This document shows, in pieces, positions 17,872-41,145 of a stretch of DNA of 64,000 nucleotides. The stretch's first letter is position 1; the number at the start of each line of letters is the position of its first letter. A model generated the notes under the pieces. That model had not been told where the DNA came from. It did no database searches and saw only the letters and a list, made by a program, of their open reading frames with translations. The position numbers and the translations under genes were made by a program. The DNA is from a bacterium (GTDB lineage Bacteria > Spirochaetota > Spirochaetia > Treponematales > UBA12059), in the NCBI GenBank assembly GCA_035530295.1, contig DATKVB010000003.1, forward strand, positions 85,110 through 149,109, written 5' to 3'.

Positions 17872-19068
17872 TTACAGTATCTCTCGCTTGGTGGCGCGCT
17901 CGAGTAATGCCTTGAGTGCAGCACTCGGGTCCTTGCGCTTGCCCAGCAGAATCATCGCGGCGATGATGTACGGCTTGTAGCTGGCTTCGGCGTAGGTGTC
18001 ATCGCGGTAGCGGTCGAACACGCTGGCGGCGACTTCGCCGGCCTTGCACGACACATCGGTGATGTCGGCTGGCAGACAGTGCATGTACAGCGCCTTGCCC
18101 TTGCTGGTCACCTTCATCTTCTGCTCGGTGCACTCCCAATCCTTGAAGTTGGCGTTGTTTGCAAGGCAAGCCTTTTCCAGATCCTTGAGGCCGGACTGGT
18201 CGCCGCTGTGCAGGAGCGGCACGCGTTTCTGCATCACATCGTATGGCGCCCAGCTCTTGGGATAGACGATGTCGGCATCCTTGAAGGCCTCTTCCATCGA
18301 GTTGACATGCTTGAACGATCCGCCGGATTCCTTGGCCTGCTTCTTCGACAGCGCGACGACATCAGGAATAAGATCGTAGCCTTCGGGATGAGCCAGCGTC
18401 ACATCCATGCCAAAGCGGCTGGCCAGGCCGATGATGCCCTGGGGCACAGACAGCGGTTTGCCGTACGATGGCGAGTATGCCCAGGTCATGGCGATCTTCT
18501 TGCCCTTGAGTTTGTCCAGCCCGCCAAAGTGGTGCGCCAGGTGCAATATGTCGGCCATCGATTGGGTCGGATGGTCGATATCGCTCTGCAGGTTGACAAT
18601 GGTCGGCCTGTCTGGCAATACGCCTGCCTTGACGCCGTCATCGAGTGCCTGCGCCACTTCGCGCTGGTACTTATCGCCTTCGCCAAGGTACATGTCGTCA
18701 CGGATGCCGATGGCTTCGGACAGGAAGCTTATCATGTTTGCGGTTTCGCGGACCGTCTCGCCATGGGCAATCTGGCTCTTGCCTTCATCAAGGTCCTGCA
18801 CATACAGGCCCAGGAGGTCGGCCGCGCTGGCGTATGAGAAGCGCGTGCGGGTGGAGTTGTCCCTGAAGTTTGAAACGGCGATGCCGGAATCCCAGATACG
18901 GGGGCTGACATTGGACTTTCGCATCTCGCGCAGTATGTCTGCGACCAGGAATGTCGCTTCGAGTTCGTCACGGCTCTTCTCCCAGGTCAGGAGAAAGTCA
19001 TTATGAAACATGTTGATCTTCTTCTTGGACAGCTGATCGATCAGCGCCTTGATTTCGTTAACGCCCAT
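17872..19068 (-). CDS. ygeW: YgeW-type knotted carbamoyltransferase
   Basis: Near-collinear with the remembered E. coli YgeW: FRDNSTRTRFSYASA, GKSQIAHGETVRETANMISF, KIAMTWAYSPSYGKPLSVPQGIIGL, MHCLPAD. GGAGG lies 8 nt upstream of ATG 19068; the alternative ATG is 19083. Confidence 0.9.
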   Translation of the reverse strand: MGVNEIKALIDQLSKKKINMFHNDFLLTWEKSRDELEATFLVADILREMRKSNVSPRIWDSGIAVSNFRDNSTRTRFSYASAADLLGLYVQDLDEGKSQIAHGETVRETANMISFLSEAIGIRDDMYLGEGDKYQREVAQALDDGVKAGVLPDRPTIVNLQSDIDHPTQSMADILHLAHHFGGLDKLKGKKIAMTWAYSPSYGKPLSVPQGIIGLASRFGMDVTLAHPEGYDLIPDVVALSKKQAKESGGSFKHVNSMEEAFKDADIVYPKSWAPYDVMQKRVPLLHSGDQSGLKDLEKACLANNANFKDWECTEQKMKVTSKGKALYMHCLPADITDVSCKAGEVAASVFDRYRDDTYAEASYKPYIIAAMILLGKRKDPSAALKALLERATKREIL

Positions 19069-19139
19069 ATTCGTAACCTCCATGCAATTTCATCGCGGCC
19101 CTGACCGGGCCGTTTTGGCTCGTACCATATAGAAAGAAA

Positions 19140-22007
19140 CTATAACTTGCCCATCGCTCGCAATACGCGCTCGGCTGTAAATGGATAGACGCGGCACCAG
19201 GCACCGACTGCATCGTGTATCGCTATCGATATCGCCGGAGCGGCGCTGTTCAGCGATATCTCCGACACGCTCTTGCCACCAAACGGACCAATCTCGTCAG
19301 CCACAGGGACCAGCTCGACATGGAAATCGTCGGGCACCTCATAGATTGATGGAATCTTGTAATCCGTAAAGTTGAGGTTGAGCGGTCTGCCCTCATCATC
19401 GAACAGCAGCTCCTCATAGAGTGAGTGGCCGATGGCCTTCATGACGCCACCATAGATCTGGCCGATGGCCAGGCTTGGGTTGATCGGCGTTCCGCAGTCC
19501 TGGTATGCGTGGAACCGGCGGAGTTTTACCTCTCCGGTACGCACATTGACGGCAGCCTCCACGAAGTGGGCGCCATACGGGAATGCCGCGTGGTCGGTCT
19601 TGAAACTGCCAAAGCCAATCAGGTCGCCATGGCCTTCACCCTGTGTCGACATGTGGGCCAGCTTGGCCAGCGTTATCTCGCCCTTCTTGCCTCGAATGAT
19701 GCCCTTGTGAACGATCCGCAGATCGGACACCGGTTCTCCGAGCAGGGCAGCTGCGACAACGAAGCACTTGTCACGCAGGTCCTCGGCGGCCTTGACCGCG
19801 GCGTTGCCGGAGAAGTAGGTGCCTGAACTTGCGTATGCGCCTTTGTCGAACGGCGTGGTATCGGTGTCGCCGGAGACCACCGACACGTCGGTCATGTCGA
19901 GGCCCAGGATTTCAGCCGCCGCCTTCGCTGTCACCGTATCGAGGCCCGTGCCGAGGTCGGCTCCACCGGAAAGCATCAGCAGGCTGCCATCGGGCAGGAG
20001 CCTGAGCTCGGCGTTGGCGGCATCGAGTCCAGGCAAGCCCGAGCCCTGCTGTATGATCACCGCTCCGCGCCCAATTTTCCAGTCAGGGTCATCCGGCTGT
20101 GGTTTGGGCTTGTCCCACGCGAAGGCTTTGCGGCCGCGCGCTATCATCTCGCCAAGACCGCACTCACCCAGGGTCACCGCTGCGCCGGGGCGACCCTCTC
20201 CAAGGCTGCGGAGTATTTCTATGCGTGAACCGGACTGCACGCGGTTCTTCTCTATCAGCTCGAGCTGGTCCATGCCCAGCGCCTCGGCCAATTCCGCCAG
20301 CGCGGTCTGCAGCGCGAAGGATCCCTTCGGCGCGCCATACCCCTGGTAGGCGCCGGCGGGTGAGAGGTTCGTGTAGTAGGTCTTTACTTCGAAGCGGGCA
20401 TTGTCGCACAGGATCAGCGGAAGACTCTTGCTGACTGCGTTCATCGGGACGGTCAGGCAGTGCTGGCCATACGGGCCGGTGTCCGCATCAACACGCATTT
20501 CCATCGCGGTCAGCGTTCCATCCTTTTTGGCTCCCAGCTTCACCGTTATCTCCATGCCATGCCTGGTGCGGCTGGTCATGAACTCCATGGCGCGGTCGTA
20601 CCGGAAGAAGACAGGGCGACCCGTCTTCCAGGCCATGAACCCGGCAACATCTTCAAGAACGATGTCCTGTTTGGCGCCGAAACCGCCGCCGACGCGCTCC
20701 TTGATGACGCGCACCTTGTGCTCCGGAATTCCTACGGCGCGTGCGACGATGCGGCGCACATGCCAGGGCACCTGTGTTGACGCGTGCAGGACCAGGCGGT
20801 CAGAGTCAACCTTGGCATAGACAACGTGCGGCTCCATCGGTGTGCACTGCACACGGGTGCCCACATAGGTTCGTTCTATTACGACATCGGCCTGCTTGAA
20901 GCCCGCATCCATATCACCAATGCCATCGGCGACGCTCGCCGCCAGGTTGCGGTGCGGATCGGCGTGCAACGGGAACTGGTAGATGATTGGGTCATCGCGA
21001 TCGTCGCCCTTGACCGAAGTACCCGCGGGTGGATCTCCGGCGACATACGAAACGTTGCCATGATGGACTATCGGCGCTCCGGGCGCCTTGGCGTCCGCGA
21101 TGGTCAGCACCGGCTTGAGGACATCGTATTCGACGATTATCGCCTTGAGTGCCGCTTCGGCTTGCTCCGGCGTCTCGGCCAGTACGGCGGCTACTCGGTC
21201 GCCGACATGGCGCACCTTGCGCGGGAACATCCGCTGGTCGTAGGGGCTGGGTTCGGGATAGCCCTGACCGGCTGTCGTGTACACCTGGTCGGGGCAGTTC
21301 TCGTGCGTGACGATATCGATGACGCCAGGCATCTGCAACGCCTTGGAGACATCGATGCGCTTGATCCACGCATGGGCGTGTGGCGACATCAATAGCTTCA
21401 GGTGGCATGCGTCGGAGTCAAGTCTATCCTCGACGAAGGCCTTCTCGCCGCGAGCGAGCGCCGGAGCGTCCACCTTTTCCCTGTCCTTGCCAACGTGGCG
21501 AAGGTCGGGTCTGAACTCGGGACCATGGGGAGCGATGTATGACGGATCGGACAGCCTGCGCGAGGCAATCCTTGCCGCTTCATAGAATTGCTCGTATCCG
21601 GTACACCGGCACAGAGTGCCGGAAAGCGCATCGCGCAGTTCGTCGTCCTTGGGCACGGGACTTCTGTCCAGAAGATCATGCAGCGCGAGCACGACGGCTG
21701 GCGTGCAATAGCCGCACTGCACGCACGAGGCGTCTATGAGCGACTGTTGTACGATCGACAGCTTGCGATCCTTGGAGTAGTGCTCGACCGTAAGTATCCG
21801 GGAGCCTTCAACCTGGGGCGCCAGTATCTGGCATGAGTTGACGAGGCGGCCATCGAGCAGCACCGCGCACAGTCCGCACGATCCTTCTCCATCACAGCCG
21901 TCCCGTACCGAGATGATGCCCTTGCGCCTGAGCAGGGAGCGCAGGGTTTCTCCTGGCTCGCAGTCCCAGGCGACGAGGCGCTCGTTGAGTGTAAAAGTAA
22001 CCTTCAT
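19140..22007 (-). CDS. xdhD: XdhD-type molybdenum hydroxylase (fused N-terminal 2Fe-2S domains plus molybdopterin subunit)
   Basis: 955 aa (E. coli XdhD is about 956 aa). 2Fe-2S motifs CDGEGSCGLCAV and CGYCTP...CRCTGY, then Moco-domain blocks ERVGGGFGAKQD, GGADLGTGLDT and DCGTPINPSLAIGQIYGG. ATGA overlap with ygfM. Confidence 0.9.
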   Translation of the reverse strand: MKVTFTLNERLVAWDCEPGETLRSLLRRKGIISVRDGCDGEGSCGLCAVLLDGRLVNSCQILAPQVEGSRILTVEHYSKDRKLSIVQQSLIDASCVQCGYCTPAVVLALHDLLDRSPVPKDDELRDALSGTLCRCTGYEQFYEAARIASRRLSDPSYIAPHGPEFRPDLRHVGKDREKVDAPALARGEKAFVEDRLDSDACHLKLLMSPHAHAWIKRIDVSKALQMPGVIDIVTHENCPDQVYTTAGQGYPEPSPYDQRMFPRKVRHVGDRVAAVLAETPEQAEAALKAIIVEYDVLKPVLTIADAKAPGAPIVHHGNVSYVAGDPPAGTSVKGDDRDDPIIYQFPLHADPHRNLAASVADGIGDMDAGFKQADVVIERTYVGTRVQCTPMEPHVVYAKVDSDRLVLHASTQVPWHVRRIVARAVGIPEHKVRVIKERVGGGFGAKQDIVLEDVAGFMAWKTGRPVFFRYDRAMEFMTSRTRHGMEITVKLGAKKDGTLTAMEMRVDADTGPYGQHCLTVPMNAVSKSLPLILCDNARFEVKTYYTNLSPAGAYQGYGAPKGSFALQTALAELAEALGMDQLELIEKNRVQSGSRIEILRSLGEGRPGAAVTLGECGLGEMIARGRKAFAWDKPKPQPDDPDWKIGRGAVIIQQGSGLPGLDAANAELRLLPDGSLLMLSGGADLGTGLDTVTAKAAAEILGLDMTDVSVVSGDTDTTPFDKGAYASSGTYFSGNAAVKAAEDLRDKCFVVAAALLGEPVSDLRIVHKGIIRGKKGEITLAKLAHMSTQGEGHGDLIGFGSFKTDHAAFPYGAHFVEAAVNVRTGEVKLRRFHAYQDCGTPINPSLAIGQIYGGVMKAIGHSLYEELLFDDEGRPLNLNFTDYKIPSIYEVPDDFHVELVPVADEIGPFGGKSVSEISLNSAAPAISIAIHDAVGAWCRVYPFTAERVLRAMGKL

Positions 22008-22804
22008 GACATTTCCTCCGCGGCGTGCATCGCGTCGGCTACGAGCGCCGCGCCGCGCAATCGCTTGTAATCGGCACTGCCGCGCTGGTCGGCTATCGCC
22101 CCCAGGAGCGGATCAACAGCCTTGTCGATGGCCTCCTTGGGTGGCAGCGCCGAGCCCTCGAACTGCCTGTCTATATCGGGCCGGAGCTGGGCGTGCGCGG
22201 CGAATCCGCCAACAGCGATCCTGAGATCCCGCACCGCGCCGCCTTCGAGCCGGTACGCGCAGGCTGCCGTTGCGGTCGCTATGTCGCATGCGGTTCTGCT
22301 CGCCCTGAGGCTCGAGGCACGCAGGCCTTTGGCTATCCTGACGCGCACATTGAGGATGAGGCCACGTGGCGAATCAAGCCACTCGGCCAGCGGTGTAGTC
22401 GCGGCGGGTCTGCCGCGCTCCTGGTATTCAACCAAAGCACCGAGCACAAGGAAGATTGGCGCGAGGCTGGAGCACGACTTGTTGCCCGCGAGATTTCCCC
22501 CGACGGTCGCCCGGTTCCTGGTGTTGCGGTTAGCCATCGATCGCGCCGCCGCTGCGATGACGGCCGGCATCTGGCCGAACTCTATCAGTTCCTGGAAGGT
22601 GGCGCAGGCGCCGATGATCAGCTCGTCGCCGCGCCGCAGTATCGCCTTGGGCAACAGCTTGCCGATGTCGACAATGCGCTCGGGCTTGTCCCTGGCCTCG
22701 AATGCCAGCACCGCAGTGCCGCCGGCTATCGCGACCGTTCCTGCGACAGCCAGCAAGTCCAGGGCTTCTCCCATGCTCGTTGGTCTGTAATATTCTTTTA
22801 CCAT
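22004..22804 (-). CDS. ygfM: YgfM-type FAD-binding subunit of molybdenum hydroxylase
   Basis: 266 aa. The N-terminus EYYRPTSMGEALDLL...IAGGT is FAD_binding_5-like. Also NRATVGGNLA and a C-terminal GSADYKRLRGAALVADA. Confidence 0.85.
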   Translation of the reverse strand: MVKEYYRPTSMGEALDLLAVAGTVAIAGGTAVLAFEARDKPERIVDIGKLLPKAILRRGDELIIGACATFQELIEFGQMPAVIAAAARSMANRNTRNRATVGGNLAGNKSCSSLAPIFLVLGALVEYQERGRPAATTPLAEWLDSPRGLILNVRVRIAKGLRASSLRASRTACDIATATAACAYRLEGGAVRDLRIAVGGFAAHAQLRPDIDRQFEGSALPPKEAIDKAVDPLLGAIADQRGSADYKRLRGAALVADAMHAAEEMS

Positions 22805-24198
22805 AATGCTGTTACCCCAGCTTTCGTAAGGAGGCGCTTGGCGCAGCGATTGGCTTCGTCGCGTATGCGGTCCTCGTCGGCTCCGGTCAGACGCCCGTCC
22901 TTGACGACAACGTGACCATTGACGATGAGGTGATCGACGCCATGGTTGTAGCCGGAAAACAGCAGGGCCGCTGCCGGATCTGACAGGGCGCCGGCGTATT
23001 CCAGCTTCATGACGTCGAACATAGCGATGTCGGCGAGCGCTCCTGGCTCCATCGAGCCGGCATCGTCGTAACCGAGTATCCGCGCGCCGCCAATCGTAGC
23101 GACGCCCAGAACCTCGCGGGCGTTGATGCCGCCCGAGCCATAGCGCACGCGTTGCAGCAACAGCGCCTGCCTTGCCTCGCCGAGCATGTCGGAGGCATCG
23201 TTGGAGGCCGAGCCATCGACGGCCAGTCCAACGTTGACGCCGCGGTCGAGCATGTCGCGGACACGGCAGATGCCTGAGCCGAGCCTCATGTTTGATGACG
23301 GGCAGTGCGCCACGCCGGTGCCCGTACTGGCCAGGAGGTCGAGCTCCTCATCGTTGAAGTGAATGCCGTGCGCGTACCAGACATCCTTGCCTACAAAGCC
23401 ATTGTCCTCCATCACCCTGAGCGGCCGGCGGCCAAGTGTCTGCATGCAGAAATCGGTTTCGTCGGCCGTCTCCGCCAGGTGCGTGTGGAGCCTGGCGCCG
23501 TACTTGCGCGCCAGATCCGCCGCGTCGCGCATCGACTTTTCGGAAACAGAGAATGGCGAGCATGGAGCCAGCGCGACGCGCCGCATCGAGTCGGGCGACC
23601 GGTCGTGATACTTCTGTAGCGCGTCTTCGCTCTGCGCCAGTATCTCGTCCTCGTCCTGGACAACGCTGTCGGGCGGCAGCCCGCCGTCTTTTTTTGACAG
23701 CGACATCGATCCCCGTGTGGGCGCGAAGCGCAAGCCAATCTCCGAGGCTGCCTTGAACTGGATGCCAGGCAGATCGCCGGTAAAGGTGCGCGGGTACAGG
23801 TAGTGGTGGTCGGTGGACAGCGTACAGCCGGTCTTGGCCAGTTCGGCCATCGCGAGCATGCTTGACCAGTACACGGCTTCTTCGTCGATACCTTTCCAGA
23901 CCTCGTAGAGGTAGACAAGCCAATCGAACAGCTTGGCATCCTGCACTGCCGGCACGTTGCGTGTCAGCGTCTGGTAAAAGTGGTGGTGTGTATTGACCAG
24001 TCCTGGCAAGACGACATGGCGGCTGGCATCGATGACGACGCATCCCTGTGGCACCGGAATTGCCTTGCCTATCGTCTTGATGCGCTTGCCTTCTATAAGA
24101 ATATCGACGCCAGAAAGGTCATCCCCGGAGGAGCCGGCTTGAGAACCGGCCCCATACCGGGGGCGGACCACCCTGAAGCAGTCCTTGAGCAGAATCAC
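22798..24198 (-). CDS. COG0402 amidohydrolase (8-oxoguanine/guanine deaminase or chlorohydrolase-like)
   Basis: 466 aa. Metal-binding PGLVNTHHHFYQT, plus HTHLAET, VAHCPSSNMRLGSG and VDGSASND. GTG start at 24198 overlaps the upstream stop (GTGA). Confidence 0.8.
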   Translation of the reverse strand: MILLKDCFRVVRPRYGAGSQAGSSGDDLSGVDILIEGKRIKTIGKAIPVPQGCVVIDASRHVVLPGLVNTHHHFYQTLTRNVPAVQDAKLFDWLVYLYEVWKGIDEEAVYWSSMLAMAELAKTGCTLSTDHHYLYPRTFTGDLPGIQFKAASEIGLRFAPTRGSMSLSKKDGGLPPDSVVQDEDEILAQSEDALQKYHDRSPDSMRRVALAPCSPFSVSEKSMRDAADLARKYGARLHTHLAETADETDFCMQTLGRRPLRVMEDNGFVGKDVWYAHGIHFNDEELDLLASTGTGVAHCPSSNMRLGSGICRVRDMLDRGVNVGLAVDGSASNDASDMLGEARQALLLQRVRYGSGGINAREVLGVATIGGARILGYDDAGSMEPGALADIAMFDVMKLEYAGALSDPAAALLFSGYNHGVDHLIVNGHVVVKDGRLTGADEDRIRDEANRCAKRLLTKAGVTALW

Positions 24199-25652
24199 CT
24201 GAGAACCTCCGCGTTGAATTCCTTTATCATCGTGTCGATGAGCGGCGCTTGTGCATGAATATTTCCCCAGTACGCGCGATAGTCATCCCACTGCGCGTTC
24301 AGCTCCTCGAGCTGCTTTCCGAGCTGTTCTATCCAGGTATAATACTTGAGTTGGTGGACACGCCTGCGGTCGACGTGGGTCATGTCGAGCACGTAGTCGA
24401 CCGACAGGTTTTTCAGCATGTCGAGGTCACGGTCGGCCTGGCGCTGGTCGTAGGGGCCGCGCTCCGCGGCAAGCTCGAGCAGCCTGGAACCATAGAGCGC
24501 GAGCGAGTCGGTGAAGACGGTCAGCGCTATGTCGTCGGCTCCGAGTTCGTAGTACTTGGCGGCCTTGATCGTGGCGACCAGGTTGCCGATGCCGGAGATG
24601 CCCATCAGGTCGAGCTTGGCGAGCACGTCGGCGGAGACGCCAGCCTCGGCCAGGACCTTCTTGCCAGCCGGCTCGTTGAAGAGGCGGAGGAGGCGGATCG
24701 TTATCTCGTCGTCGACGCCGACGGCGACATCGGTGTCACGGAGATTGTGGATCCATGGAATGTGCTTGTCGCCTATGCCTTCGATGCGGTGGCCGCCGAA
24801 GCCGTTTTCAAGAATGGTCGGGCACTGCAGCGCCTCGCCGACGCCGACACGCGTGCCTGGATGGTGTTCCTTGAGGTAGGTGCCGGAACCGAGCGTGCCG
24901 GCCGAGCCAGAAGAGTACATGGTCAGCGCCAGGTGATCGCCGGCTTTGGCCATCAGCTTGAAGACATCGTCCATGGCCGGACCGGTGACGGAGTAGTGCC
25001 ACAGGTGGTTTGGCAGCTGGTCAAACTGGTTGAATATGACGGCGTCTGGCCTGGTCTTTTCGATCTCGATGCACTTGTCGAAAATTTCCTTGACGTTGGA
25101 TTCACAACCCGGGGTTGCTATCACTTCGTCAGCCATCGTCTTGAGCCAGGTAAAGCGCTCCTTTGACATTTCGGCTGGCAGGATGGCGACCGACGGGCAG
25201 GAGAGCAGCTTGGAAATGTAGGCGCCACCACGGCAGTAGTTGCCGGTCGATGGCCAGACGGCCTTCTTGGTGGTCGGGTCGAAGCGACCGGTAACCAGTT
25301 CAGGCACCAGACATGAATATGCGGCACCAACCTTGTGGGCTCCGGTGGGGAACCACTTGCCGACGATGCCGGCGATGCGGGCCTTGGTGCCCGTTATCTC
25401 GCGGGGTAGCTCGAAGTAGTTGACATTGCCGAACTGGCCGCCCTTTTCCTTTGGCTCGTTCTTCCATGTCACGCGGAAGAGGTTGCGGCTGTGGGTGTCC
25501 CACAGGCCGATGTTCTTGAGTTCGTCCTTGTACTGCTGCGGCACCTTGGACGGGTCGCGCATCTGCTCGTAGGTCGGCAGGACAATGCCCTTTTCTTTGC
25601 AGCGCTGGATGTTCTTCTTGCGTGCCTTCTCGTCAATCCGTAAATCGATCAT
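24195..25652 (-). CDS. fold-type II (TrpB/cysteine-synthase-like) PLP-dependent enzyme, unusually long (485 aa)
   Basis: TrpB-like PLP-lysine motif FPTGAHKVGAAYS. Gly-rich phosphate loop SSGSAGTLGSG. AAGGAG lies upstream of ATG 25652. Not a YgeX (diaminopropionate ammonia-lyase) orthologue by length or motifs. Confidence 0.7.
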   Translation of the reverse strand: MIDLRIDEKARKKNIQRCKEKGIVLPTYEQMRDPSKVPQQYKDELKNIGLWDTHSRNLFRVTWKNEPKEKGGQFGNVNYFELPREITGTKARIAGIVGKWFPTGAHKVGAAYSCLVPELVTGRFDPTTKKAVWPSTGNYCRGGAYISKLLSCPSVAILPAEMSKERFTWLKTMADEVIATPGCESNVKEIFDKCIEIEKTRPDAVIFNQFDQLPNHLWHYSVTGPAMDDVFKLMAKAGDHLALTMYSSGSAGTLGSGTYLKEHHPGTRVGVGEALQCPTILENGFGGHRIEGIGDKHIPWIHNLRDTDVAVGVDDEITIRLLRLFNEPAGKKVLAEAGVSADVLAKLDLMGISGIGNLVATIKAAKYYELGADDIALTVFTDSLALYGSRLLELAAERGPYDQRQADRDLDMLKNLSVDYVLDMTHVDRRRVHQLKYYTWIEQLGKQLEELNAQWDDYRAYWGNIHAQAPLIDTMIKEFNAEVLR

Positions 25653-25723
25653 GTCGTTCTCCTTTGTGTCTCATGTGTACAGGTCAATGCTTGTCGATCA
25701 GATATGTGTCGTACAATACTCGT

Positions 25724-26926: not shown

Positions 26927-26927
26927 A

Positions 26928-32574: not shown

Positions 32575-32582
32575 GATCTTGC

Positions 32583-33977
32583 TCACCGGTACCCCCATCG
32601 TAAAAATTTTCCGTAGCCTGCATCGACGGTTATTCCGACCGCCGCATCGGCGGCTGCCCCGGCTCGTTTTCCATCCCAAATTACGCGGCCGCGCAACCAT
32701 GTCGCGACAATCGAACCGTCAAGGCGCATGCCTTCGAACGGCGTCAATGTTCCCTTGCTCAACAGCCGCGATCCTTTGACATCGTAGCTGCCTTTTGGAT
32801 CGACCATGATGATGTCCGCGTCCATGCCGACGGCAAGCGCGCCCTTGCGGGCCGAGAGCCCGAAACGGGCCGCCGCTCCGGCACTCGTGGCTCGCAGCAG
32901 TTCGGACAGAGACAGCCGCCCCGCCCGATACCCTTCCGAATACAGGTAGGGGAACAGGGTGCCAGTTCCGGGAATGCCGCCATAGTCGGTCCAGATCGAA
33001 CCGGTATGCTTCTCCGATTCCGGAGCTGGCGCGTGGTCGCTCGTCACGTATGATATTGCTCCCGACGCCAGGAGCCGCCAGAGCCGCTCCGCCTGCCCGC
33101 GCGACTTTACCGGTGGGGCCGTCTTCAGCGACGAGCCATGATCCGCAAAATCGTCGCTACAGAAGGCGAGGTAGTGCGGGCAGGTCTCGCAGCTGGCGCC
33201 TGTAGCCGCAATGGCCTCGGCCGCCTCCGCGGTGCCGACATGCACGATGTGCAGGCTGGTCTCGTGCCCGTGTGCCAGCGCGAGCGCGGAGGCGACTGCG
33301 ACGGTTTCAGCCGTCTCTGGCCGCGAGTCCACATAGTCCTGCCAACGGGGTCGGCGATGTTCCGCCATGGCCCTGGCCTTCGCGGCATCGGTCGAGGGCA
33401 GCACGACTCCGGGATCCTCCGCGTGCAACAGCACGGGCCTGCCGAGTCCGGCTGCCTTGGCAACCACCCGCCCGAAGCCGTAGTGATCTACAGCGGTAAA
33501 GGTGTCCATCCCGGAAATAAAGTAGCACTTGAAGCCGACTACATCGGGGGCGAGCGCCTCCATGTCTGACTCCAGCGATGACTCGATAGTATGTCCAGAG
33601 ATGCCGCCATAGAGCGCGTAATCGACGACGCTGTGGGCACCCATCGCCACGAGCTTCTGCCCGAGGTTGGCCTGGGTCGTAACCGGCGGCAGGCTCGTGC
33701 ATGGCATGTCTATCACCGTGGTTACGCCACCACGCGCTGCGGCCATCGATCCGTGGTGGAAATCCTCGCGGTGGGTAAAGCCAGGCTCGTCGAAGTGCAC
33801 ATGCGGATCTATAGCCCCGGGGAACAGCTCGAGCCCGGACGCATCGAACAGCTCTTCTCCGTCGTGCGGGCTTATCGTTTCCGCAATTTCAACGATACGC
33901 TCCGCGGTGATTCGTATGTCGCGCCTGACCAGGGTCTTCGCACCGGGCAATGCGCATAGCCCGTTCTTGAGTATCAT
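32583..33977 (-). CDS. cyclic amidohydrolase (allantoinase/dihydroorotase/hydantoinase family)
   Basis: 464 aa from ATG 33977 (MILKNGLCALPG), in ATGA overlap with the upstream gene. GAIDPHVHFDEPG metal site, VVGFKCY (the carbamylated-Lys position), LLHAED, TSDHAP and GMDADI. Occupies the slot held by hyuA in E. coli. The 107-aa ORF-track extension is rejected. Confidence 0.8.
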   Translation of the reverse strand: MILKNGLCALPGAKTLVRRDIRITAERIVEIAETISPHDGEELFDASGLELFPGAIDPHVHFDEPGFTHREDFHHGSMAAARGGVTTVIDMPCTSLPPVTTQANLGQKLVAMGAHSVVDYALYGGISGHTIESSLESDMEALAPDVVGFKCYFISGMDTFTAVDHYGFGRVVAKAAGLGRPVLLHAEDPGVVLPSTDAAKARAMAEHRRPRWQDYVDSRPETAETVAVASALALAHGHETSLHIVHVGTAEAAEAIAATGASCETCPHYLAFCSDDFADHGSSLKTAPPVKSRGQAERLWRLLASGAISYVTSDHAPAPESEKHTGSIWTDYGGIPGTGTLFPYLYSEGYRAGRLSLSELLRATSAGAAARFGLSARKGALAVGMDADIIMVDPKGSYDVKGSRLLSKGTLTPFEGMRLDGSIVATWLRGRVIWDGKRAGAAADAAVGITVDAGYGKFLRWGYR

Positions 33978-36262
33978 CGTGGGCCTCCCGCGGTTTTGGC
34001 GCCGCCAACGATGAAGTTCATGGCCTTCTCGGGCGTCATGGGCAGGTCGTAGAATGACGGGGCATCCGGGTGCACCGCGCGGAGCGCATCCATCACCGCA
34101 AAGTAGCCGGCTATGCCGTACATCAGGGGCGGTTCTCCCACGGCCTTGGAGTTGGCCACGACCATCGGGTTGGGCCTGGTATAGAACTCCACATCGAGCC
34201 TGGGCATGAAGTGTGCGTCGGGAAGCTTGTATGTTGATAGCGTATCGGCCAGCAGCCTGCCCGTCTCGTCGAACTTGAGTTCCTCGAGCGCCGCCCATCC
34301 CAGGCCCTGTGCGAAGGCGCCCTCGATCTGCCCCAGGTCGACCAACTGGTCGATAGACTCGGCTATGTCGTGGACTATGATAGCGTCATCGAACTGATAC
34401 CTGCCCCTGACCACGTCGAGCGTAGCCGTGACTATGCAACAGCCGTACACGTGATAGAGGAATGGTGTGCCGTGCTCGGCCTTCATGTCGTAATGCAGGC
34501 CCGGCGTCGCGTAGAAGCCATGGGCGGACAGGTCGATGCGCCGCTCGTACGCCATGCCGGCCAGCGCGGCAAAGGTCAGATCTGTTTCTCGCGTGCCCGT
34601 CGGGCCCTTCACGCTGACGCGGCCGTCGGCAATCATGATTGCATCGACCGGCACGCCGAGCCGTTCGGACGCCAACGTGGCGAGGCGCTTGCGTATCTCG
34701 ATGCTGGCCACCTGCGCGGCCATCGCGTTGATGTCGGAGCCAGTACTCGCGGCTGTTGCGACCGTATTGGCAACCGTGGTCGTCCTCGTGCTCTCGACCC
34801 TCACGAGCGGCAGCGGAGCCCCGAGCGCGCGAGCCGTGACTATTGCTATTTTGCGGCCAACGCCTTGCCCCATCTCGATGGCGCCGGTGCTTACCGATAC
34901 CGAGCCATCGTTGTATACATGCACCAATGAACCACCCTGGTTCAGCATTATCTTGGTAAAGCTTATGCCAAAACACTGGGGAAACGCCGCCGCCCCGCGC
35001 TTGTACGCCTTGTTCGTTGCGTTGAAGGTCGCGATGTCGGCCCGCAACCTGGGCCAGCCCGCCTTGTCCATGCAGCGGTCAAAGGTAGCCTTGGCCCGCA
35101 CATCGACCATCTGCATGCCGTAGTGCGACACATCGCCCTCGGACAGCAGGTTCCTGCGCTGAATCTCGGTACGGTCGATGCCCAGAACCCTGGAGGCCGC
35201 ATCGATGGCGCTCTCTATGACAAAGAGCCCCTGCGGTCCGCCGAAGCCACGGAATGCCGTGAATGGCACCAAGTTGGTCCGGCACATAGTGCCGGTGGCC
35301 CTCACGTTGGGGATGTGGTACGCGCCGGCCGCGTGGAACAGCGTGCGGGGCAATATGGCCGGCGACAGATCGGTCGCGGCTCCAGCGTTCTGGTAGTAGT
35401 CGGCCTCGAATGCGATGATGGTGCCGTCTTTTTTAAGGCCAATCTTGAAATCTGACGAGTATGGGTGGCGCTTGCCCGTGCTTGTCATGTCGTCGCGTCG
35501 GTTCAGGTACAGCTTGACCGGCTTTCCGGTTTTCACCGCGCCAAGTGCGGCGAGAGCCGCCCATCCGGAGGCCTGGTCCTCCTTGCCGCCAAAGGCGCCG
35601 CCCAGCCGGCGCGTCTCCACCTCGACCAGGTTCATCGGCACGCCCAGAATCCTGGCGACGATCGCCTGCACGCCGGAGGGGCTCTGTGTGCCCGAAAGCA
35701 ACCGTACGCCGCCTGAATCCTCTGGCCAGGCTATCGCGCCCTGGGTCTCCAGGTACACATGCTCCTGGCCGTCCGACTCGACACGGCCCGACAGGACCAC
35801 GTCGCATTCTTTGTAGGCCGCCTCGGGGTCGCCTGAGCGCTGGGTCCTGCTCGTCATGATGATGTCGCCACGCTCGAAGGCGACCCGAGGATCGACAACC
35901 ACCGGCAGGTCTTGTCGTCCCTCGATCCTGACCAGGGCGGCGGCCCTGCGGGCTATCGACCGCGATGGAGCCAGCACCAGCGCCAGCACCTCTCCGCGGT
36001 AGTGCCACTCGCCCGTCGCGAGCATCGGCTCATCGGGAATCGAGGTGGACAGCTCATTCTGGCCGGGCACGTCGGAGGCGACAAGCACGCGCACCCCCGG
36101 CGCGTAGGCCAGAGCGGCCGACGCATCGAGTCCACTGTAGCGGCCGTGCGCCGAAGGGGATGTGACGATGGCCGCGTGCAGCATGTCAGAAGTCTCCGGA
36201 ACATCGTCGATATAGGTGGTCTTGCCCATCACATTGAGTATTGAATCGGGATTGCGCTTCAT
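33974..36262 (-). CDS. xdhB: xanthine dehydrogenase, molybdopterin-binding large subunit (two-subunit Rhodobacter-type architecture)
   Basis: 762 aa from ATG 36262. Blocks RRLGGAFGGKED, FRGFGGPQG and GQGLGWAALEE. Symbol follows Rhodobacter nomenclature. ATGA overlap with the small subunit. Confidence 0.88.
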   Translation of the reverse strand: MKRNPDSILNVMGKTTYIDDVPETSDMLHAAIVTSPSAHGRYSGLDASAALAYAPGVRVLVASDVPGQNELSTSIPDEPMLATGEWHYRGEVLALVLAPSRSIARRAAALVRIEGRQDLPVVVDPRVAFERGDIIMTSRTQRSGDPEAAYKECDVVLSGRVESDGQEHVYLETQGAIAWPEDSGGVRLLSGTQSPSGVQAIVARILGVPMNLVEVETRRLGGAFGGKEDQASGWAALAALGAVKTGKPVKLYLNRRDDMTSTGKRHPYSSDFKIGLKKDGTIIAFEADYYQNAGAATDLSPAILPRTLFHAAGAYHIPNVRATGTMCRTNLVPFTAFRGFGGPQGLFVIESAIDAASRVLGIDRTEIQRRNLLSEGDVSHYGMQMVDVRAKATFDRCMDKAGWPRLRADIATFNATNKAYKRGAAAFPQCFGISFTKIMLNQGGSLVHVYNDGSVSVSTGAIEMGQGVGRKIAIVTARALGAPLPLVRVESTRTTTVANTVATAASTGSDINAMAAQVASIEIRKRLATLASERLGVPVDAIMIADGRVSVKGPTGTRETDLTFAALAGMAYERRIDLSAHGFYATPGLHYDMKAEHGTPFLYHVYGCCIVTATLDVVRGRYQFDDAIIVHDIAESIDQLVDLGQIEGAFAQGLGWAALEELKFDETGRLLADTLSTYKLPDAHFMPRLDVEFYTRPNPMVVANSKAVGEPPLMYGIAGYFAVMDALRAVHPDAPSFYDLPMTPEKAMNFIVGGAKTAGGPR

Positions 36263-37689
36263 GAAAGGAGTTCCTCCTCGAGCTTGAGGGCGGGCCACAG
36301 CCTGATGAAGGCGGCCCAGGCCAGCCGCTCCAACAGGTTCTTGCGGTAGGTCGACGAACCGCGCACATCGCTCATAGGGCTGCCGGCGGCGCTAGCCAGC
36401 GTGCCAACCTGCCGTGCCAGAGCTGCCGATGGCTTCTGGCCACGCATCGCGGCCTCCACGTCGCGGAGCCGGAGCGGGGTAGCAGCCACGCCGCCAGCCG
36501 AATACCGTACATCCACGATCGTGCCATCCGCGGTCATCATCACGGCGCAGGCGCAGTTGACGGTGGCAATGTCCAGCCGTTCCCGCTTGCTGGCCTTCTC
36601 GAAGTCAAACGCGGACCAGCCGCCGCGGAACTCTATGCTCTGAATGGCCTCAGACGGCTTCATGTCAATCTTCTTGTAACCGGTAAAGAACTGGTCCAGC
36701 CTGACGCGCCTCTCGCCATCGGGGCCGGACAGTACCAGCTCCGCATCGAGAGCTATCAGCATCGCCGTCATGTCGGCTATGGGCGAGGCGTTGGCTATGT
36801 TGCCCGCGAGCGTCGCCCGATTGCGTATCGGCGGCGAGGCCACATCGTGTTCGAAGCGCTCTATGCCAGGCACTGCCTGCCTGACCGCGGCCGAGCCGAA
36901 GAAATCCGTGGCGTTCACGCCCGCGCCCATCACTATGCAGTCATGCCCGTTTCGTTTTGCCTCGGTTATGGCCCTGGCCGACGGTCCCCTGTCGATGAAG
37001 GCTGGTGCCAGATCGGACTCGGGGTCAGGGTTGCGGACGAAGTAGTCGGTGCCTCCACCCAGCACCGGGCTTCCGGCAACCGGCGTCGATGGACCGGCGG
37101 CGGCTACTGGTGGCATTGTCATCAGCGCGGCCAGCCTTCTGGGTATCACATGACGATCAGCCAGCATTGCCAGCCTCGGACCCAGCTCCGCAGGCAGATC
37201 CTTGTATTCGTCGGCGAGCCTGGACGCGGCCCTGCGAATCGACCCATAGCCTGTGCAACGGCAGAGATTGCCCTCCACGGCGACCATCGCTTCCACCGGG
37301 TCTATCCTGGAGCCGGATACCAGATAGCCTGTCAGCGCCAGTATGAAGCCAGGAGAGCAGAAGCCGCATTGGCTGGCGCCCTCATCGAGCATCGCATCCA
37401 TGACCGGCGTCAGGCCGCCTGACGCGAGGCCTTCCACCGTAATCACATGGCGACCGTCGAGTTCACCCATCGCCAGTGTGCAGGAAGTGACCGACCGCCA
37501 CTCTGTCGAACCATCAGGAGCGCGTCCGCCCATCAGCACGAGGCACGCGCCGCAGTCTCCCTCGCGGCAGCCCTCTTTGGTCCCCTTGAGGCCAGCCTCA
37601 TTGCGTATCCAGTCGAGGGCCAGAGCCTCCTCCCGGACCGCTATGTCGTAGTCGGTTTCATTCAGTCTGAACTTGATGTTTCGTGTCAT
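36259..37689 (-). CDS. xdhA: xanthine dehydrogenase small subunit (2x[2Fe-2S] plus FAD domain)
   Basis: 476 aa. CREGDCGACLV and CGFCSPG...CRCTGY Fe-S motifs, followed by an FAD-binding domain (LGGGTDYF, NRATLAGNIANASP). Symbol follows Rhodobacter nomenclature. Confidence 0.85.
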   Translation of the reverse strand: MTRNIKFRLNETDYDIAVREEALALDWIRNEAGLKGTKEGCREGDCGACLVLMGGRAPDGSTEWRSVTSCTLAMGELDGRHVITVEGLASGGLTPVMDAMLDEGASQCGFCSPGFILALTGYLVSGSRIDPVEAMVAVEGNLCRCTGYGSIRRAASRLADEYKDLPAELGPRLAMLADRHVIPRRLAALMTMPPVAAAGPSTPVAGSPVLGGGTDYFVRNPDPESDLAPAFIDRGPSARAITEAKRNGHDCIVMGAGVNATDFFGSAAVRQAVPGIERFEHDVASPPIRNRATLAGNIANASPIADMTAMLIALDAELVLSGPDGERRVRLDQFFTGYKKIDMKPSEAIQSIEFRGGWSAFDFEKASKRERLDIATVNCACAVMMTADGTIVDVRYSAGGVAATPLRLRDVEAAMRGQKPSAALARQVGTLASAAGSPMSDVRGSSTYRKNLLERLAWAAFIRLWPALKLEEELLS

Positions 37690-37882: not shown

Positions 37883-39619
37883 TCAAGATCCTTTGAACAA
37901 TGGTACCATCTTGAACAAATCCACATCGACGAGTCCCTTGTCGGTAATCTTCAGGGCAGGAATTACCGGAAGGGCCATGAAAGAGAGCGTCATCAGGGGC
38001 GAATCGCCCGGAATGCCCTCGCTGGCAAAGAAATCCTCAAAAGCTGACAGTCGTTCTATTACAATGGCCGCGGGTTCGTCACTCATCAGGCCGGCGACTG
38101 GCAGGGCGAGTTCGGCTAGAACCTCGTCGCCGTCCGTGACCACATAGCCGCCCTTCATAGCGTTGAGACGCCTCGCGGCCTTGAATATCGAGCTGTCATC
38201 GACACCCGCGATTATCATGTTGTGCGAGTCGTGGCTGACCGTAGAACCGATGGCGCCGCGCTTGAGCTTGAGCCCGCGTATGAAGCCCTTGCCTATCGAG
38301 CCTGAGCCGGTATGGCGTTCTATGACGAATATTTTGACTATATCGCGGTCGAGATCGGAAACGCACAGGCCATCAACCACCTTTGGCCGCGCAAAGGAGG
38401 CCGTTGTTATGATGGAGCCAGGCGTCGACTCGATGACGCGGGCCAGTCCGCCTTCGTCGGGAATGCGGAAGTCCTTCTCTTCGAGCCACTTGATGTTGAC
38501 GGAGTCACGGAGCGGCGGCGCGACGATTGAGCCGCCAAGTGCGTCGTATCCCGCGGTGCGGACGCCGTTCTCCGCTATCGCGATGCCTGCCTTGAAGACA
38601 AGCTCAGCATTGAAGGCGAGCGGGTCGGAGAACACGACCAGGTCGGCCTTGTAGCCTGGAGCTATCGCTCCCGTGCGCCTGAGACCGTAGTACAGGGCCG
38701 GATTGTGGCTGGCCATCCGCAGCACATCCATGAAGGGCACGCCGCCGGAAACCAGCGACCGCACCGCCGCGTCGATATGGCCCTCTGTGGCTATGTCGTT
38801 GGGGTGGCGGTCATCGGTGCAGAGCATCATGCGGCGGATTGTCTCATGATTCATCGCCGGAATCAGGTGCTCGAGGTCCCTGGCGCTTGAACCCATACGC
38901 GCCATGATCCACATGCCCTTGCCGAGTTTGCTCAAGGCCTCTTCAGGCGTAGTCGCCTCATGGTCGCTGCGTATGCCAGAGAGCGCATACGCGGACAGAT
39001 CGCGGCCCGAGAGTCCAGGAGCGTGACCATCTATGGCCTTGCCAGCTTCCCAGAACAGCGAGATCTTGTCCAAGACCCGGGGGTCTGCCGACAACACTCC
39101 AGGATAGTTCATCACCTCGCCCAGGCCAAGGACACGCTCCTCGCGGGCGAAGCGCGCAAGATCAGATGCGAACAGCGCTGCTCCGGCGGTATCAAACCCC
39201 GTTGCCGGAACGCATGAAGGCACCATCATGTACACGTCGAGCGGTATGCCGTCCGACGCGCGGAGCATCCAGTTTATGCCATCGTGACCAAGGACATTGG
39301 CTATCTCGTGCGGGTCGGCAATTATCGCCGTGGTGCCACGGGGACATACCATCCGGGAGAACTCGACCGGCGTCAGCAGGCTTGATTCTATATGCACATG
39401 CGCATCGATAAGCCCGGGGCAGACATAGCGGCCACCGAGGCTCCTGGTCGCTCTGGCTTCGAGCCCATCATTGATGCCGACTATATAGCCCCGGTATATG
39501 GAGACCGTGACCGCATCGAGTATGGTGCCGCGGAAGAAGTCCACGACCCTACAGTCGGTGAGATTGAGGTCCGCGGGAGTGCGTCCCCGGGCAACGTCGA
39601 TATAGTCGGTTTTAAGCAT
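37883..39619 (-). CDS. ade: adenine deaminase
   Basis: 578 aa. PGLIDAHVHIESSLLTP, ADPHEIANV, VSHDSHNMII, and C-terminal FMALPVIPALKITDKGL, matching the remembered E. coli Ade layout. Confidence 0.9.
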   Translation of the reverse strand: MLKTDYIDVARGRTPADLNLTDCRVVDFFRGTILDAVTVSIYRGYIVGINDGLEARATRSLGGRYVCPGLIDAHVHIESSLLTPVEFSRMVCPRGTTAIIADPHEIANVLGHDGINWMLRASDGIPLDVYMMVPSCVPATGFDTAGAALFASDLARFAREERVLGLGEVMNYPGVLSADPRVLDKISLFWEAGKAIDGHAPGLSGRDLSAYALSGIRSDHEATTPEEALSKLGKGMWIMARMGSSARDLEHLIPAMNHETIRRMMLCTDDRHPNDIATEGHIDAAVRSLVSGGVPFMDVLRMASHNPALYYGLRRTGAIAPGYKADLVVFSDPLAFNAELVFKAGIAIAENGVRTAGYDALGGSIVAPPLRDSVNIKWLEEKDFRIPDEGGLARVIESTPGSIITTASFARPKVVDGLCVSDLDRDIVKIFVIERHTGSGSIGKGFIRGLKLKRGAIGSTVSHDSHNMIIAGVDDSSIFKAARRLNAMKGGYVVTDGDEVLAELALPVAGLMSDEPAAIVIERLSAFEDFFASEGIPGDSPLMTLSFMALPVIPALKITDKGLVDVDLFKMVPLFKGS

Positions 39620-39858
39620 TGCTGGTCACATCGAGCCCGAGGGTTCGGGCAGCCGCTATTGTTACCGGCTTTTTGAATCTTGTCAAACCGATTCTTCTGG
39701 AACGGAACCATGACAGGATCACGTGCCAAATATTGAAGAAAAAGAAATTTGTTGCCAAAAATGATATCGCGGCGTAGTCTCTTGGCGATTGTACGCCTCG
39801 TATTTTTATGGAAATCGCATCCGGGAGGCGGAACAAAATCACACAAGGAGGCTGAAAA

Positions 39859-41145
39859 GTGGAACAGCTTTTCAAACTGAAGGCTCATGGCACTACGGTA
39901 AGGACCGAGATCATGGCCGGCATAACTACGTTCATGACCATGGCGTATATCCTGGCGGTCAACCCGGGAATCCTGAGCGCGACCGGCATGCCTGCCGGCG
40001 GCATCTTCACGGCAACCGCGTTGGCTTCGCTGATAGCGACCGTGATGATGGCCCTGCTCGCCAACCTGCCAATAGCGCTTGCCCCAGGCATGGGACTCAA
40101 CGCGTTCTTCGCGTTCACGGTCGTGCTGGGTATGGGCTACCCCTGGCAGCTCGCGCTGACCGCGGTCTTTGTTGAAGGCATCATCTTCATCCTGATGTCG
40201 TTCTTCAACATACGCGAGGCCATCGTCAAGTCGATACCCAAGAACATCAAAAACGCCGTATCAGTCGGTATCGGCCTGTTCATCGCGTTCATCGGCCTGC
40301 AGAACGCCGGCATAATCGCCAACAATGACGCGACGCTCGTAAGCCTTGGCAACATCACCAAGGGCCCCGCGCTGGTCGCTATCATTGGCCTCGTGCTTAC
40401 TGGCGTGCTGCTGGCCTTCAGGGTCAAGGGCGCGCTGCTCATCGGTATCATCGCCACCACGATCGTCGGCATACCGTTCGGCGTTACCACGGTACCGAAG
40501 GGCTGGAATCCTGTCAGCATGCCCGCCGCGCCCCTGTTGTTCCAATTCCAGTTTGACAAGATATTTACGCTCGACTTCGTTGTCGTGATGTTCACGTTCC
40601 TGTTTGTCGACATATTCGACACGATAGGCACACTGGTCGGCGTCACGACGCAGGCTGGCATCATCGGCAAGAACGGCGATATTCCAAAGGTCAAGCAGGC
40701 ATTGCTGTCCGACGCGGTCGGCACTGTCGTCGGAGCCTGCCTTGGTACCTCAACGGTTACCTCGTATGTCGAGAGCGCCGCCGGCGTCGCCGAGGGCGGC
40801 CGCACTGGCCTGACGTCGCTGACCACCGGACTCCTCTTCGGAGTGGCCCTGTTCCTGTCGCCACTCTTCCTGCTGGTCCCTGGCGCCGCTACGGCACCTG
40901 CCTTGATACTGGTCGGATTGTTCATGTTGAGCCCGGTCAAGGAACTGGACCTGACTGACTTCACCGAGGCGATTCCCGCGTTCCTCACCATCGTCATGAT
41001 GCCGCTGTCGTACAGCATCGCCGAGGGCCTGGTCTTTGGTATCCTGTCATACATCTTCCTCAAGGCCATCACCGGCAAGTTCAAGGACATCACGGTGACA
41101 ACCTGGATAGTGGGCTTCTTCTTCATACTGAAGCACATCCTGTAA
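39859..41145 (+). CDS. NCS2/AzgA-family purine (adenine/hypoxanthine/guanine) permease
   Basis: 428 aa. N-terminus FKLKAHGTTVRTEIMAGITTFMTMAYILAVNPGIL is diagnostic of AzgA/PurP-type permeases. GTG start is preceded by AAGGAGG. Confidence 0.9.
   Translation: MEQLFKLKAHGTTVRTEIMAGITTFMTMAYILAVNPGILSATGMPAGGIFTATALASLIATVMMALLANLPIALAPGMGLNAFFAFTVVLGMGYPWQLALTAVFVEGIIFILMSFFNIREAIVKSIPKNIKNAVSVGIGLFIAFIGLQNAGIIANNDATLVSLGNITKGPALVAIIGLVLTGVLLAFRVKGALLIGIIATTIVGIPFGVTTVPKGWNPVSMPAAPLLFQFQFDKIFTLDFVVVMFTFLFVDIFDTIGTLVGVTTQAGIIGKNGDIPKVKQALLSDAVGTVVGACLGTSTVTSYVESAAGVAEGGRTGLTSLTTGLLFGVALFLSPLFLLVPGAATAPALILVGLFMLSPVKELDLTDFTEAIPAFLTIVMMPLSYSIAEGLVFGILSYIFLKAITGKFKDITVTTWIVGFFFILKHIL

Follow-up and report, generated by a model that had tools for sequence, protein, structure and literature searches.

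We describe an operon in a 64-kb window, by which we mean the whole stretch of DNA analysed (positions 85,110 to 149,109 of contig DATKVB010000003.1, assembly GCA_035530295.1), from a spirochaete of the order Treponematales (UBA12059). An open reading frame (ORF) listing together with NCBIfam and Pfam scans places 13 intact, tightly packed and co-directional genes on the minus strand between 17872 and 39619. A divergent purine permease adjoins them, as proposed in an earlier reading made without database searches (the sequence-only reading), and the outer limits which that reading gave to the 14 genes (17872-41145) proved to be exact. We estimate at about 0.8 the probability that the operon and its importer would allow an anaerobic spirochaete to ferment purines to a C3 product via the reductive, 2,8-dioxopurine pathway of uric acid breakdown. 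The pathway is known and the operon is genuine and conserved; what is new is a probable hydantoinase and proposed terminal enzymes that are not orthologous to those described, a xanthine dehydrogenase (XDH) of its own type, and additional feeder enzymes. The features are listed below from the first gene of the operon to the last, followed by the permease and a hairpin; scores are those of the named family models, and PLP denotes pyridoxal phosphate.

37883-39619, minus strand: ade, adenine deaminase, first gene of the operon; TIGR01178, 580.9 bits (above the cut-off of 472.5)
36259-37689, minus strand: XDH small subunit with [2Fe-2S] and FAD domains, Rhodobacter XdhA type; best family TIGR02963
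33974-36262, minus strand: XDH molybdopterin (Mo) subunit, XdhB type; TIGR02965
32583-33977, minus strand: allantoinase/dihydroorotase-like cyclic amidohydrolase; best match TIGR03178
29464-32598, minus strand: ygfK (DOPOR); TIGR03315, 1015.6 bits (above the cut-off of 835)
28145-29467, minus strand: ssnA; NF005540, 509.8 bits (above the cut-off of 444)
26928-28148, minus strand: ygeY, M20 hydrolase; NF009555, 493.9 bits (above the cut-off of 321)
25724-26926, minus strand: ThrC-like PLP enzyme; PALP domain, 224 bits
24195-25652, minus strand: PLP485, a 485-residue PLP enzyme of the CysK/CBS (cystathionine beta-synthase) fold; weak PALP and cysK matches only
22798-24198, minus strand: AH466, amidohydrolase of the 8-oxoguanine deaminase family; NF006055, 609 bits (above the cut-off of 532)
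22004-22804, minus strand: ygfM, FAD subunit of the XdhD complex; reciprocal best BLASTP match
19140-22007, minus strand: xdhD (DOPDH), Mo/Fe-S enzyme; TIGR03313, 1209 bits (above the cut-off of 1102)
17872-19083, minus strand: ygeW, knotted carbamoyltransferase, last gene of the operon; NF005538, 695.7 bits (above the cut-off of 453)
39859-41145, plus strand: divergent NCS2/AzgA-like purine permease; PF00860, 162.7 bits
17807-17842, no strand assigned: 16-bp GC-rich hairpin between the convergent ygeW and upstream plus-strand genes, from the scan for terminator-like structures

The 13 minus-strand genes form one operon and are not a chance grouping. The majority of junctions are either 4-nt overlaps (as at the start of the XDH Mo subunit, between the end of PLP485 and the start of AH466, and between ygfM and xdhD) or lie no more than 1 nt apart, and there are only three larger gaps: 193 nt between ade and the XDH genes, 71 nt between the ThrC-like gene and PLP485, and 56 nt between xdhD and ygeW. 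A promoter-like sequence, TTGACA-17-AACAAT, lies at 39686-39658, 38 nt 5' of ade, and the terminator-like scan found nothing downstream of ade before the hairpin at 17807-17842 past ygeW, which is likely a bidirectional terminator. The same gene order recurs in other spirochaete genomes, at 65-80% nucleotide identity: at five of the related loci that we fetched (L007, L009, L013, L014 and L015) it matches that of the window, with unrelated flanking genes. In L014 ('Spirochaetae bacterium HGW-Spirochaetae-3') the whole cluster is collinear at ~77% nucleotide identity, and it aligns in full at 65-75% in four other spirochaete metagenome-assembled genomes (MAGs). The case for a single transcription unit thus draws on the overlapping starts and stops, the lone promoter-like site, the terminator hairpin and a gene order that recurs amid unrelated flanks.

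As for regulation, we considered sigma-54 control of the kind found in E. coli and rejected it; there is no YgeV homologue, and no -12 element stands at the proper distance from the sole TGGCAC of the ade-permease spacer. A search of the two intergenic regions for repeats and operators returned short matches at chance level only. A scan of the whole window at Rfam gathering thresholds found a single tRNA (55036-55108) and no riboswitch or other known RNA in the leaders. Many long ORFs lie opposite cluster genes (e.g. 18079-18837, 22025-22915, 25622-26626 and 40137-41186); as these are typical of coding sequence at 58-65% GC, we read them as shadow ORFs and not as genes.

The sequence-only reading held most reactions and intermediates associated with this gene set to be unassigned, a view that is now outdated: in 2025 every step was assigned in E. 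coli and C. sporogenes, when the route from gut bacteria was reconstituted by Liu et al. (10.1101/2025.04.24.650524) and Li et al. (PMC12507026). In the published scheme a separate XDH feeds the pathway by converting hypoxanthine and xanthine to urate, which XdhD-YgfM (XdhAC in clostridia) reduces to 2,8-dioxopurine. This is reduced by YgfK with NADPH, opened by SsnA to ureidomethylhydantoin and converted by HyuA to 2,3-diureidopropionate. YgeW, together with phosphate, takes off one ureido group and a coupled carbamate kinase makes ATP; YgeY then yields 2,3-diaminopropionate (DAP), from which YgeX produces pyruvate and ammonia in the last step (10.1101/2025.04.24.650524, PMC12507026). Glu606 of E. 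coli XdhD has been proposed to orient urate, and SsnA has been used as the marker for pathway clusters (PMC12507026).

An all-against-all BLASTP comparison of window proteins with the xdhA-uacT region of E. coli K-12 identifies six reciprocal best matches, in agreement with the gene names given by the sequence-only reading: YgeW (67% identity), XdhD (52% over 958 residues), SsnA (51%), YgeY (50%), YgfK (42% over 993 residues) and YgfM (29%). The equivalent of Glu606 is conserved in XdhD. The permease, at 36% identity to the AzgA-like GhxQ of E. coli, is likewise a reciprocal best match within the locus set. Both loci thus share orthologues of six enzymes and an AzgA-like permease nearby, and both are of the NAD(P)H type in architecture, having a YgfM FAD subunit and a long YgfK. 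Near-collinearity with E. coli, as had been suggested, holds for two blocks of two genes, ygfK-ssnA and ygfM-xdhD, which are adjacent in both; the remainder is rearranged, and the spirochaete genes form a single operon where those of E. coli form several units. Nor is the amidohydrolase at the position of hyuA, as was thought: it lies upstream of ygfK.

Other differences concern gene content. A tblastn search of the entire 64 kb with the E. coli proteins (E<1e-3) detected no YgeX, YqeA, YqeB, YqeC, MocA, YgeV (the sigma-54 regulator), XanQ or UacT, which bears out the absences (ygeX, yqeA, yqeB, yqeC, mocA and a sigma-54 activator) noted before. Among the larger ORFs that lie outside the cluster, Pfam scans revealed no SelD family, though no sequence search was aimed at SelD. 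GuaD is also missing relative to E. coli, an allantoinase-like paralogue stands in place of HyuA, and XDH has two subunits as opposed to the three of XdhABC. Additions on the spirochaete side are Ade, the ThrC-like enzyme, PLP485 and the 8-oxoguanine-deaminase-family enzyme, the last three being the 'three extra enzymes' of the sequence-only reading. Of all the departures from published clusters the two PLP enzymes, to which that reading gave no specific role, are the most informative.

The 2,8-dioxopurine clusters of C. sporogenes and C. difficile follow a common logic with the one described here, in that XDH produces urate, DOPDH, another Mo enzyme, reduces it, the ring is opened and removal of the ureido groups leads to diaminopropionate. 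The clostridial enzymes differ in having no FAD modules and probably use ferredoxin (10.1101/2025.04.24.650524; PMC12507026). In C. difficile, UacX and UacY are found where the spirochaete has YgfK and YgeW, and both clostridia have kept YgeX. A different fermentation, the Rabinowitz 'xanthinase' pathway of purinolytic clostridia, reportedly involves hydrolytic ring opening of xanthine, with formiminoglycine and glycine as its end points; it too is anaerobic and starts at XDH, but the operon encodes SsnA, YgfK, YgeW and YgeY of the reductive route.

On the basis of these assignments, the following scheme may be proposed. The permease would import a purine base; Ade would convert adenine to hypoxanthine and ammonia, and the two-subunit XDH would take hypoxanthine via xanthine to urate. 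Reduction of urate at C6 by XdhD-YgfM would give 2,8-dioxopurine, the C4=C5 bond of which YgfK would reduce with NADPH. SsnA would then open the six-membered ring of dihydro-2,8-dioxopurine, giving ureidomethylhydantoin, and the allantoinase-like cyclic amidohydrolase would open the hydantoin ring of the latter to yield 2,3-diureidopropionate. One ureido group would be phosphorolysed by YgeW with formation of carbamoyl phosphate and the other hydrolysed by YgeY, leaving DAP. Finally, the ThrC-like/PLP485 pair would convert DAP to pyruvate by beta-elimination or beta-replacement, possibly via serine, while AH466 may allow guanine-derived 2-amino-oxopurines to be fed in as urate. ATP recovery from carbamoyl phosphate and maturation of the Se/Mo cofactor would rely on genes outside the window. 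Both halves of this scheme, the conversion of adenine, hypoxanthine and xanthine to urate by Ade and XDH and the reductive ring-opening branch that continues through XdhD/YgfM, YgfK, SsnA, the amidohydrolase, YgeY, YgeW and the PLP enzymes, had been anticipated by the sequence-only reading and are supported by gene-by-gene homology to biochemically characterised enzymes.

Simple arithmetic on the published intermediates shows that XDH releases four electrons, as many as XdhD and YgfK together use, and that hypoxanthine plus 3 H2O equals diureidopropionate; the route would therefore be redox-neutral and the operon self-contained. That the window holds orthologues for most of the published route, plus Ade and an importer, supports this pathway.

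The enzymes that depart from the E. coli complement merit individual attention. The XDH small subunit is 42% identical to E. coli XdhC and 27% to XdhB, and the Mo subunit, 27% identical to E. coli XdhA by BLASTP, carries the canonical XDH glutamate motifs GGAFGGKED and AVGEPPL. The cyclic amidohydrolase falls just short of the allantoinase family (TIGR03178, 353.5 bits against a cut-off of 357.85) and well short of the D-hydantoinases (TIGR02033, 214.5 bits against 393), and it shows only 27.5% identity to E. coli HyuA (BLASTP). From its sequence it is a distant, allantoinase-like paralogue of HyuA and not an orthologue. Ureidomethylhydantoin is allantoin with one additional methylene, which makes an allantoinase-like enzyme plausible as the hydantoinase, and its genomic context suggests that it probably takes the HyuA step.

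AH466 matches the solved chains 3hpa and 7ww2 (438 and 412 bits) across residues 28-457, with aligned metal-binding and catalytic motifs HxH, HTHLAE and VDGSASND. It accompanies PLP485 across many phyla, directly adjacent to it, and the cluster, unlike that of E. coli, contains no guanine deaminase. The simplest role for AH466 is as a putative feeder of guanine-derived 2-amino-oxopurines into urate, though this is a guess which we put forward tentatively.

What, then, can be said of the two PLP enzymes? Neither has a BLASTP match to E. coli YgeX at E<1e-3, and no diaminopropionate ammonia-lyase family figures among their NCBIfam matches at E<=1e-5. The ThrC-like protein has an N-terminal ribbon with four cysteines and a lysine motif, SFKDR, and falls below the cut-offs of threonine synthase models (187 bits against 303, and 137 against 167); PLP485 reaches 70 bits against the cysK cut-off of 351. 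Annotation gives PLP485 no label more specific than 'cysteine synthase' or 'PLP-dependent enzyme', and our search for a name among solved structures and curated families yielded generic CysK/CBS matches only. An AlphaFold2 model of PLP485 (predicted local distance difference test, pLDDT, 72; predicted template modelling score, pTM, 0.80) retrieves cystathionine beta-synthase and O-acetylserine sulfhydrylase cores with Foldseek, at 19-27% identity. The PLP lysine K107 (TGAHK), an STGN substrate loop and a glycine-rich phosphate loop (GS.GT) are conserved family-wide. With respect to the CysK/CBS core, PLP485 shares predicted fold and PLP-binding motifs but is longer by ~75 residues at the N-terminus and ~130 at the C-terminus and carries a conserved insert (273-303); it is found in the genomic context of purine catabolism and not of sulfur assimilation. 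Members of the CysK/CBS clade act on beta-substituted alanines via an aminoacrylate intermediate, so the chemistry expected of PLP485 is suited to removal of the beta-amino group of DAP.

PLP485 is widespread. A pattern scan with one genome per species recovered it from at least 597 species genomes in more than 10 phyla, of which 80 were kept for analysis (Spirochaetota, Betaproteobacteria, Acidobacteriota, Atribacterota, Synergistota, Halanaerobiales, Bipolaricaulota, Thermotogota, Chloroflexota, KSB1 and Ignavibacteria). Clustering at 50% gives essentially one full-length group and a few outliers, and even across phyla its members retain 56-82% identity to the window protein, the nearest relatives being in Spirochaetota, Treponemataceae and Spirochaetaceae MAGs. 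An identical protein is encoded on a 572-kb ENA metagenome contig (ERZ27256808 k141_3145965). In two genomes whose neighbouring genes share 88-94% identity with those of the window, identity of PLP485 is just 76-77%, and it reaches 82% in genomes with more distant neighbouring genes (L013/L014 and L009/L012 compared), an indication that the gene at 24195-25652 may be mosaic or recombinant in origin.

To describe genomic context we used those 42 PLP485 loci that have 6 kb or more on either side, taking flanks of 10 kb and classing ORFs against the window and E. coli proteins before clustering. The ThrC-like partner is present at 28 of the 42, followed by a Mo-hydroxylase large subunit (23), a YgeW-like carbamoyltransferase (21), YgeY (15), AH466 (14), the cyclic amidohydrolase (12), SsnA (10) and YgfK (8). 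At least one purine-cluster family occurs at 31 of these loci and a decarbamoylating enzyme at 25. Three unrelated routes for removing two carbamoyl groups adjoin PLP485: YgeY with YgeW; two YgeW-like genes with a carbamate kinase (Bipolaricaulota and Thermotogota); and, in Betaproteobacteria, an M20 carbamoylase of the allantoate amidohydrolase type with a CN-hydrolase, where genes for a TRAP transporter and for an Fe-S serine dehydratase are also present. The pair is likewise found with either reductase, YgfK or the clostridial UacX. One locus (L044, 49-12822) has a C. difficile-type UacX reductase with DHO_dh and 4Fe-4S domains and a distant SsnA-like gene, alongside YgeY, a YgeW-like gene, the ThrC-like enzyme, PLP485 and AH466; because this UacX-type cluster keeps the PLP pair, the pair is independent of reductase type.

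Two variants among these loci may be mentioned here. In three betaproteobacterial loci (L018, L023 and L025, at ~5500-12800), a minimal cluster without Mo enzyme, SsnA or YgfK runs in the order TRAP transporter, allantoate-amidohydrolase-type M20 carbamoylase, CN-hydrolase, ThrC-like enzyme, PLP485; the next gene encodes an Fe-S L-serine dehydratase in L018 and L023 and a transposase in L025. Such a cluster looks suited to importing and degrading a ureido-amino acid from outside the cell. In L027, L037 and L050 (~7900-9990), which represent several unrelated genomes, genes for a DUF364/DUF4213 ('heavy-metal chelation') protein, a YqeB-like protein and an NTPase_1 stand directly upstream of PLP485 and may be Mo/Se cofactor maturation genes.

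YgeX itself was sought by tblastn in 94 of the 96 other fetched loci, and no orthologue was found; the best match, of 52 bits, was to a ThrC-like gene and is at the level of fold only. Gene tables for the remaining two (L096 and L097) hold only a PLP pair of ~385 and 488 residues or no PALP gene, and no YgeX. Selecting on SsnA in place of PLP485, by a profile search in which Enterobacteriaceae dominate, left two informative non-enteric contexts (a Rhodoferax-type bacterium and a member of the Alkalispirochaetaceae); in both, an M20 gene is followed by PALP genes of ~385 and ~487 residues. Li et al. called 'YgeX' in SsnA neighbourhoods from Pfam PF00291 alone (PMC12507026), and scoring of this kind cannot tell PLP485 or ThrC-like proteins from YgeX.

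Like YgeX, the pair consists of fold-type II PLP enzymes, and it occupies the neighbourhood next to ygeY in which YgeX is otherwise encoded; it differs in comprising two proteins instead of one, with PLP485 belonging to the CysK/CBS clade and bearing extra terminal domains. From context and fold we favour, by a modest margin over even odds, replacement of YgeX by the ThrC-like/PLP485 pair, which would convert DAP to pyruvate. That PLP485 is the member acting on DAP we regard as an evenly balanced proposal; a split in D/L specificity between the two proteins is possible, as is a serine intermediate. In more general terms, the pair could constitute a previously unrecognised two-enzyme end module of the reductive purine pathway, acting on DAP, in most non-enteric anaerobes, a generalisation to which we give slightly less than even odds.

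The alternative that survives best accepts a place for the pair in the pathway but assigns it beta-replacement: DAP, or its mono-ureido precursor, would be turned into L-serine or another beta-substituted alanine, to be deaminated by a separate enzyme or used in biosynthesis. PLP485 does fall in the CysK/CBS beta-replacement clade, two enzymes suggest two chemical steps, and in Betaproteobacteria an Fe-S L-serine dehydratase directly follows the pair. No serine dehydratase is present, however, in the window or in the other spirochaete clusters, and hydrolysis of aminoacrylate to pyruvate is spontaneous, which makes a lyase outcome simpler. We consider beta-replacement unlikely, albeit worth bearing in mind, and retain direct formation of pyruvate as the preferred role of the pair.

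A less probable alternative concerns the origin of the operon. The cluster in L004 (Treponema sp. GWB1_62_6) is the same as that in the window minus exactly XdhD with YgfM and SsnA with YgfK, leaving two clean gaps (corresponding to 19140-22804 and 28145-32598); XDH, the cyclic amidohydrolase, YgeY, the PLP pair, AH466 and YgeW are retained. Since exactly these two blocks are missing, the reductive module behaves as two separable two-gene cassettes. Transposase genes lie downstream of ygeW in L004. One might accordingly see the operon as a fusion of two systems, an older non-reductive module (XDH, allantoinase-like enzyme, AH466, YgeY, YgeW and the PLP pair), in which AH466 and the cyclic amidohydrolase would open the rings, and the later-inserted XdhD/YgfM and YgfK/SsnA. 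The Treponema cluster holds precisely the older module so defined, and the direct adjacency of AH466 and PLP485 in many phyla would fit. On the other hand, production of a C3 diamino acid from urate or xanthine requires four reducing equivalents (chemistry in PMC12507026), and over residues 28-457 AH466 aligns with 8-oxoguanine deaminases that have been characterised, the deaminase motifs being conserved. The genes absent from the Treponema cluster may, moreover, sit elsewhere in the GWB1_62_6 genome, and other seemingly SsnA-less loci end at the 10-kb flank; for Halanaerobiales-type loci an SsnA-less variant is not established, as the flank ends where another amidohydrolase gene starts. We judge a fusion improbable, and continue to treat the operon as a single reductive pathway.

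Could the PLP genes be an ordinary threonine synthase and an ordinary cysteine synthase lying in the operon by chance? Their best named models are indeed those two enzymes, but they fall far short of the cut-offs (187 bits against 303 for the ThrC-like protein, 70 against 351 for PLP485), purine clusters from more than 10 phyla conserve the pair, and PLP485 is a discrete family of 485-residue proteins with unique N- and C-terminal extensions, so that this explanation is very improbable. To a selenium-metabolism or selenate-reductase system, as the names of the matched NCBIfam/TIGRFAM families would have it (Se_ygfK, Se_ssnA, 'selenium metabolism-linked hydrolase'), we give next to no weight: the names reflect co-occurrence with Se-dependent Mo hydroxylases, YgfK activity neither needs nor gains from selenate, and each enzyme has a purine intermediate (10.1101/2025.04.24.650524).

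Several points weigh against fermentation of purines by the reductive route as we propose it. All functions here are transferred from homologues or from genomic context. Three subunits score under their family cut-offs, namely the XDH small subunit (TIGR02963, 307.5 bits against 467), the XDH Mo subunit (TIGR02965, 731 against 849.5) and YgfM (TIGR03312, 85 against 241.5). The FAD_binding_5 and CO_deh_flav_C domains are present in YgfM. Carbamate kinase and YqeB/YqeC/SelD occur in all or most characterised strains, yet the tblastn search found no YqeA, YqeB or YqeC in the 64-kb window; in the published strains, carbamate kinase and Se-cofactor genes are sometimes sited elsewhere (10.1101/2025.04.24.650524). 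The genes kept in the Treponema cluster may also work in a different context. As regards the last step, there are two PLP enzymes here although YgeX alone suffices, and 11 of the 42 well-covered PLP485 loci have no recognisable purine gene within 10 kb. Finally, the loci were chosen on PLP485, hence the absence of YgeX nearby is suggestive and not a demonstration of genome-wide exclusivity.

The anaerobic urate pathway is under development for urate-lowering probiotics and is used to predict purine turnover by the microbiome. The operon described here suggests that environmental spirochaetes hold the core of this pathway as a self-contained, redox-balanced unit leading from adenine to a C3 product, and that non-orthologous enzymes, masked by current family-level annotation, carry out the last step and probably that of the hydantoinase. 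If the PLP pair does end the pathway in most non-enteric anaerobes, the last step published from gut model organisms would be a minority solution, and surveys in which every PF00291 gene counts as YgeX would have mis-assigned the pair. A candidate substrate for a large, conserved orphan PLP family offers a direct route to its de-orphaning and to better calls of uricolytic capacity from metagenomes. The lead worth following is thus the orphan PLP485/ThrC-like pair, rather than the cluster itself.

The remainder of the window is housekeeping in character, with argG/argH, alr, prfC, polA, topoisomerase IV and a pair resembling a pseudouridine kinase and glycosidase. Two overlapping plus-strand ORFs of 304 and 300 residues (15944-17750), located between argH and the terminator of the cluster, have no counterpart beside the related clusters checked, save for a 40-residue fragment match of the 300-residue ORF in L013; the 304-residue ORF has a sub-threshold ABC-permease match only (20 bits) and the other no Pfam match. 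The sole signalling genes of the window, a protein with an adenylate/guanylate cyclase domain adjoining a 946-residue response-regulator/GAF/PAS/HisKA_2 hybrid kinase (3503-7703), lie ~10 kb from the cluster, with no link to purine control established. At 48008-49934 on the plus strand, ~7 kb from the purine cluster, a PfkB-family kinase stands beside an Indigoidine_A-family protein as in a typical pseudouridine kinase/glycosidase pair, and this would represent a second nucleoside-salvage or catabolic function in the window.

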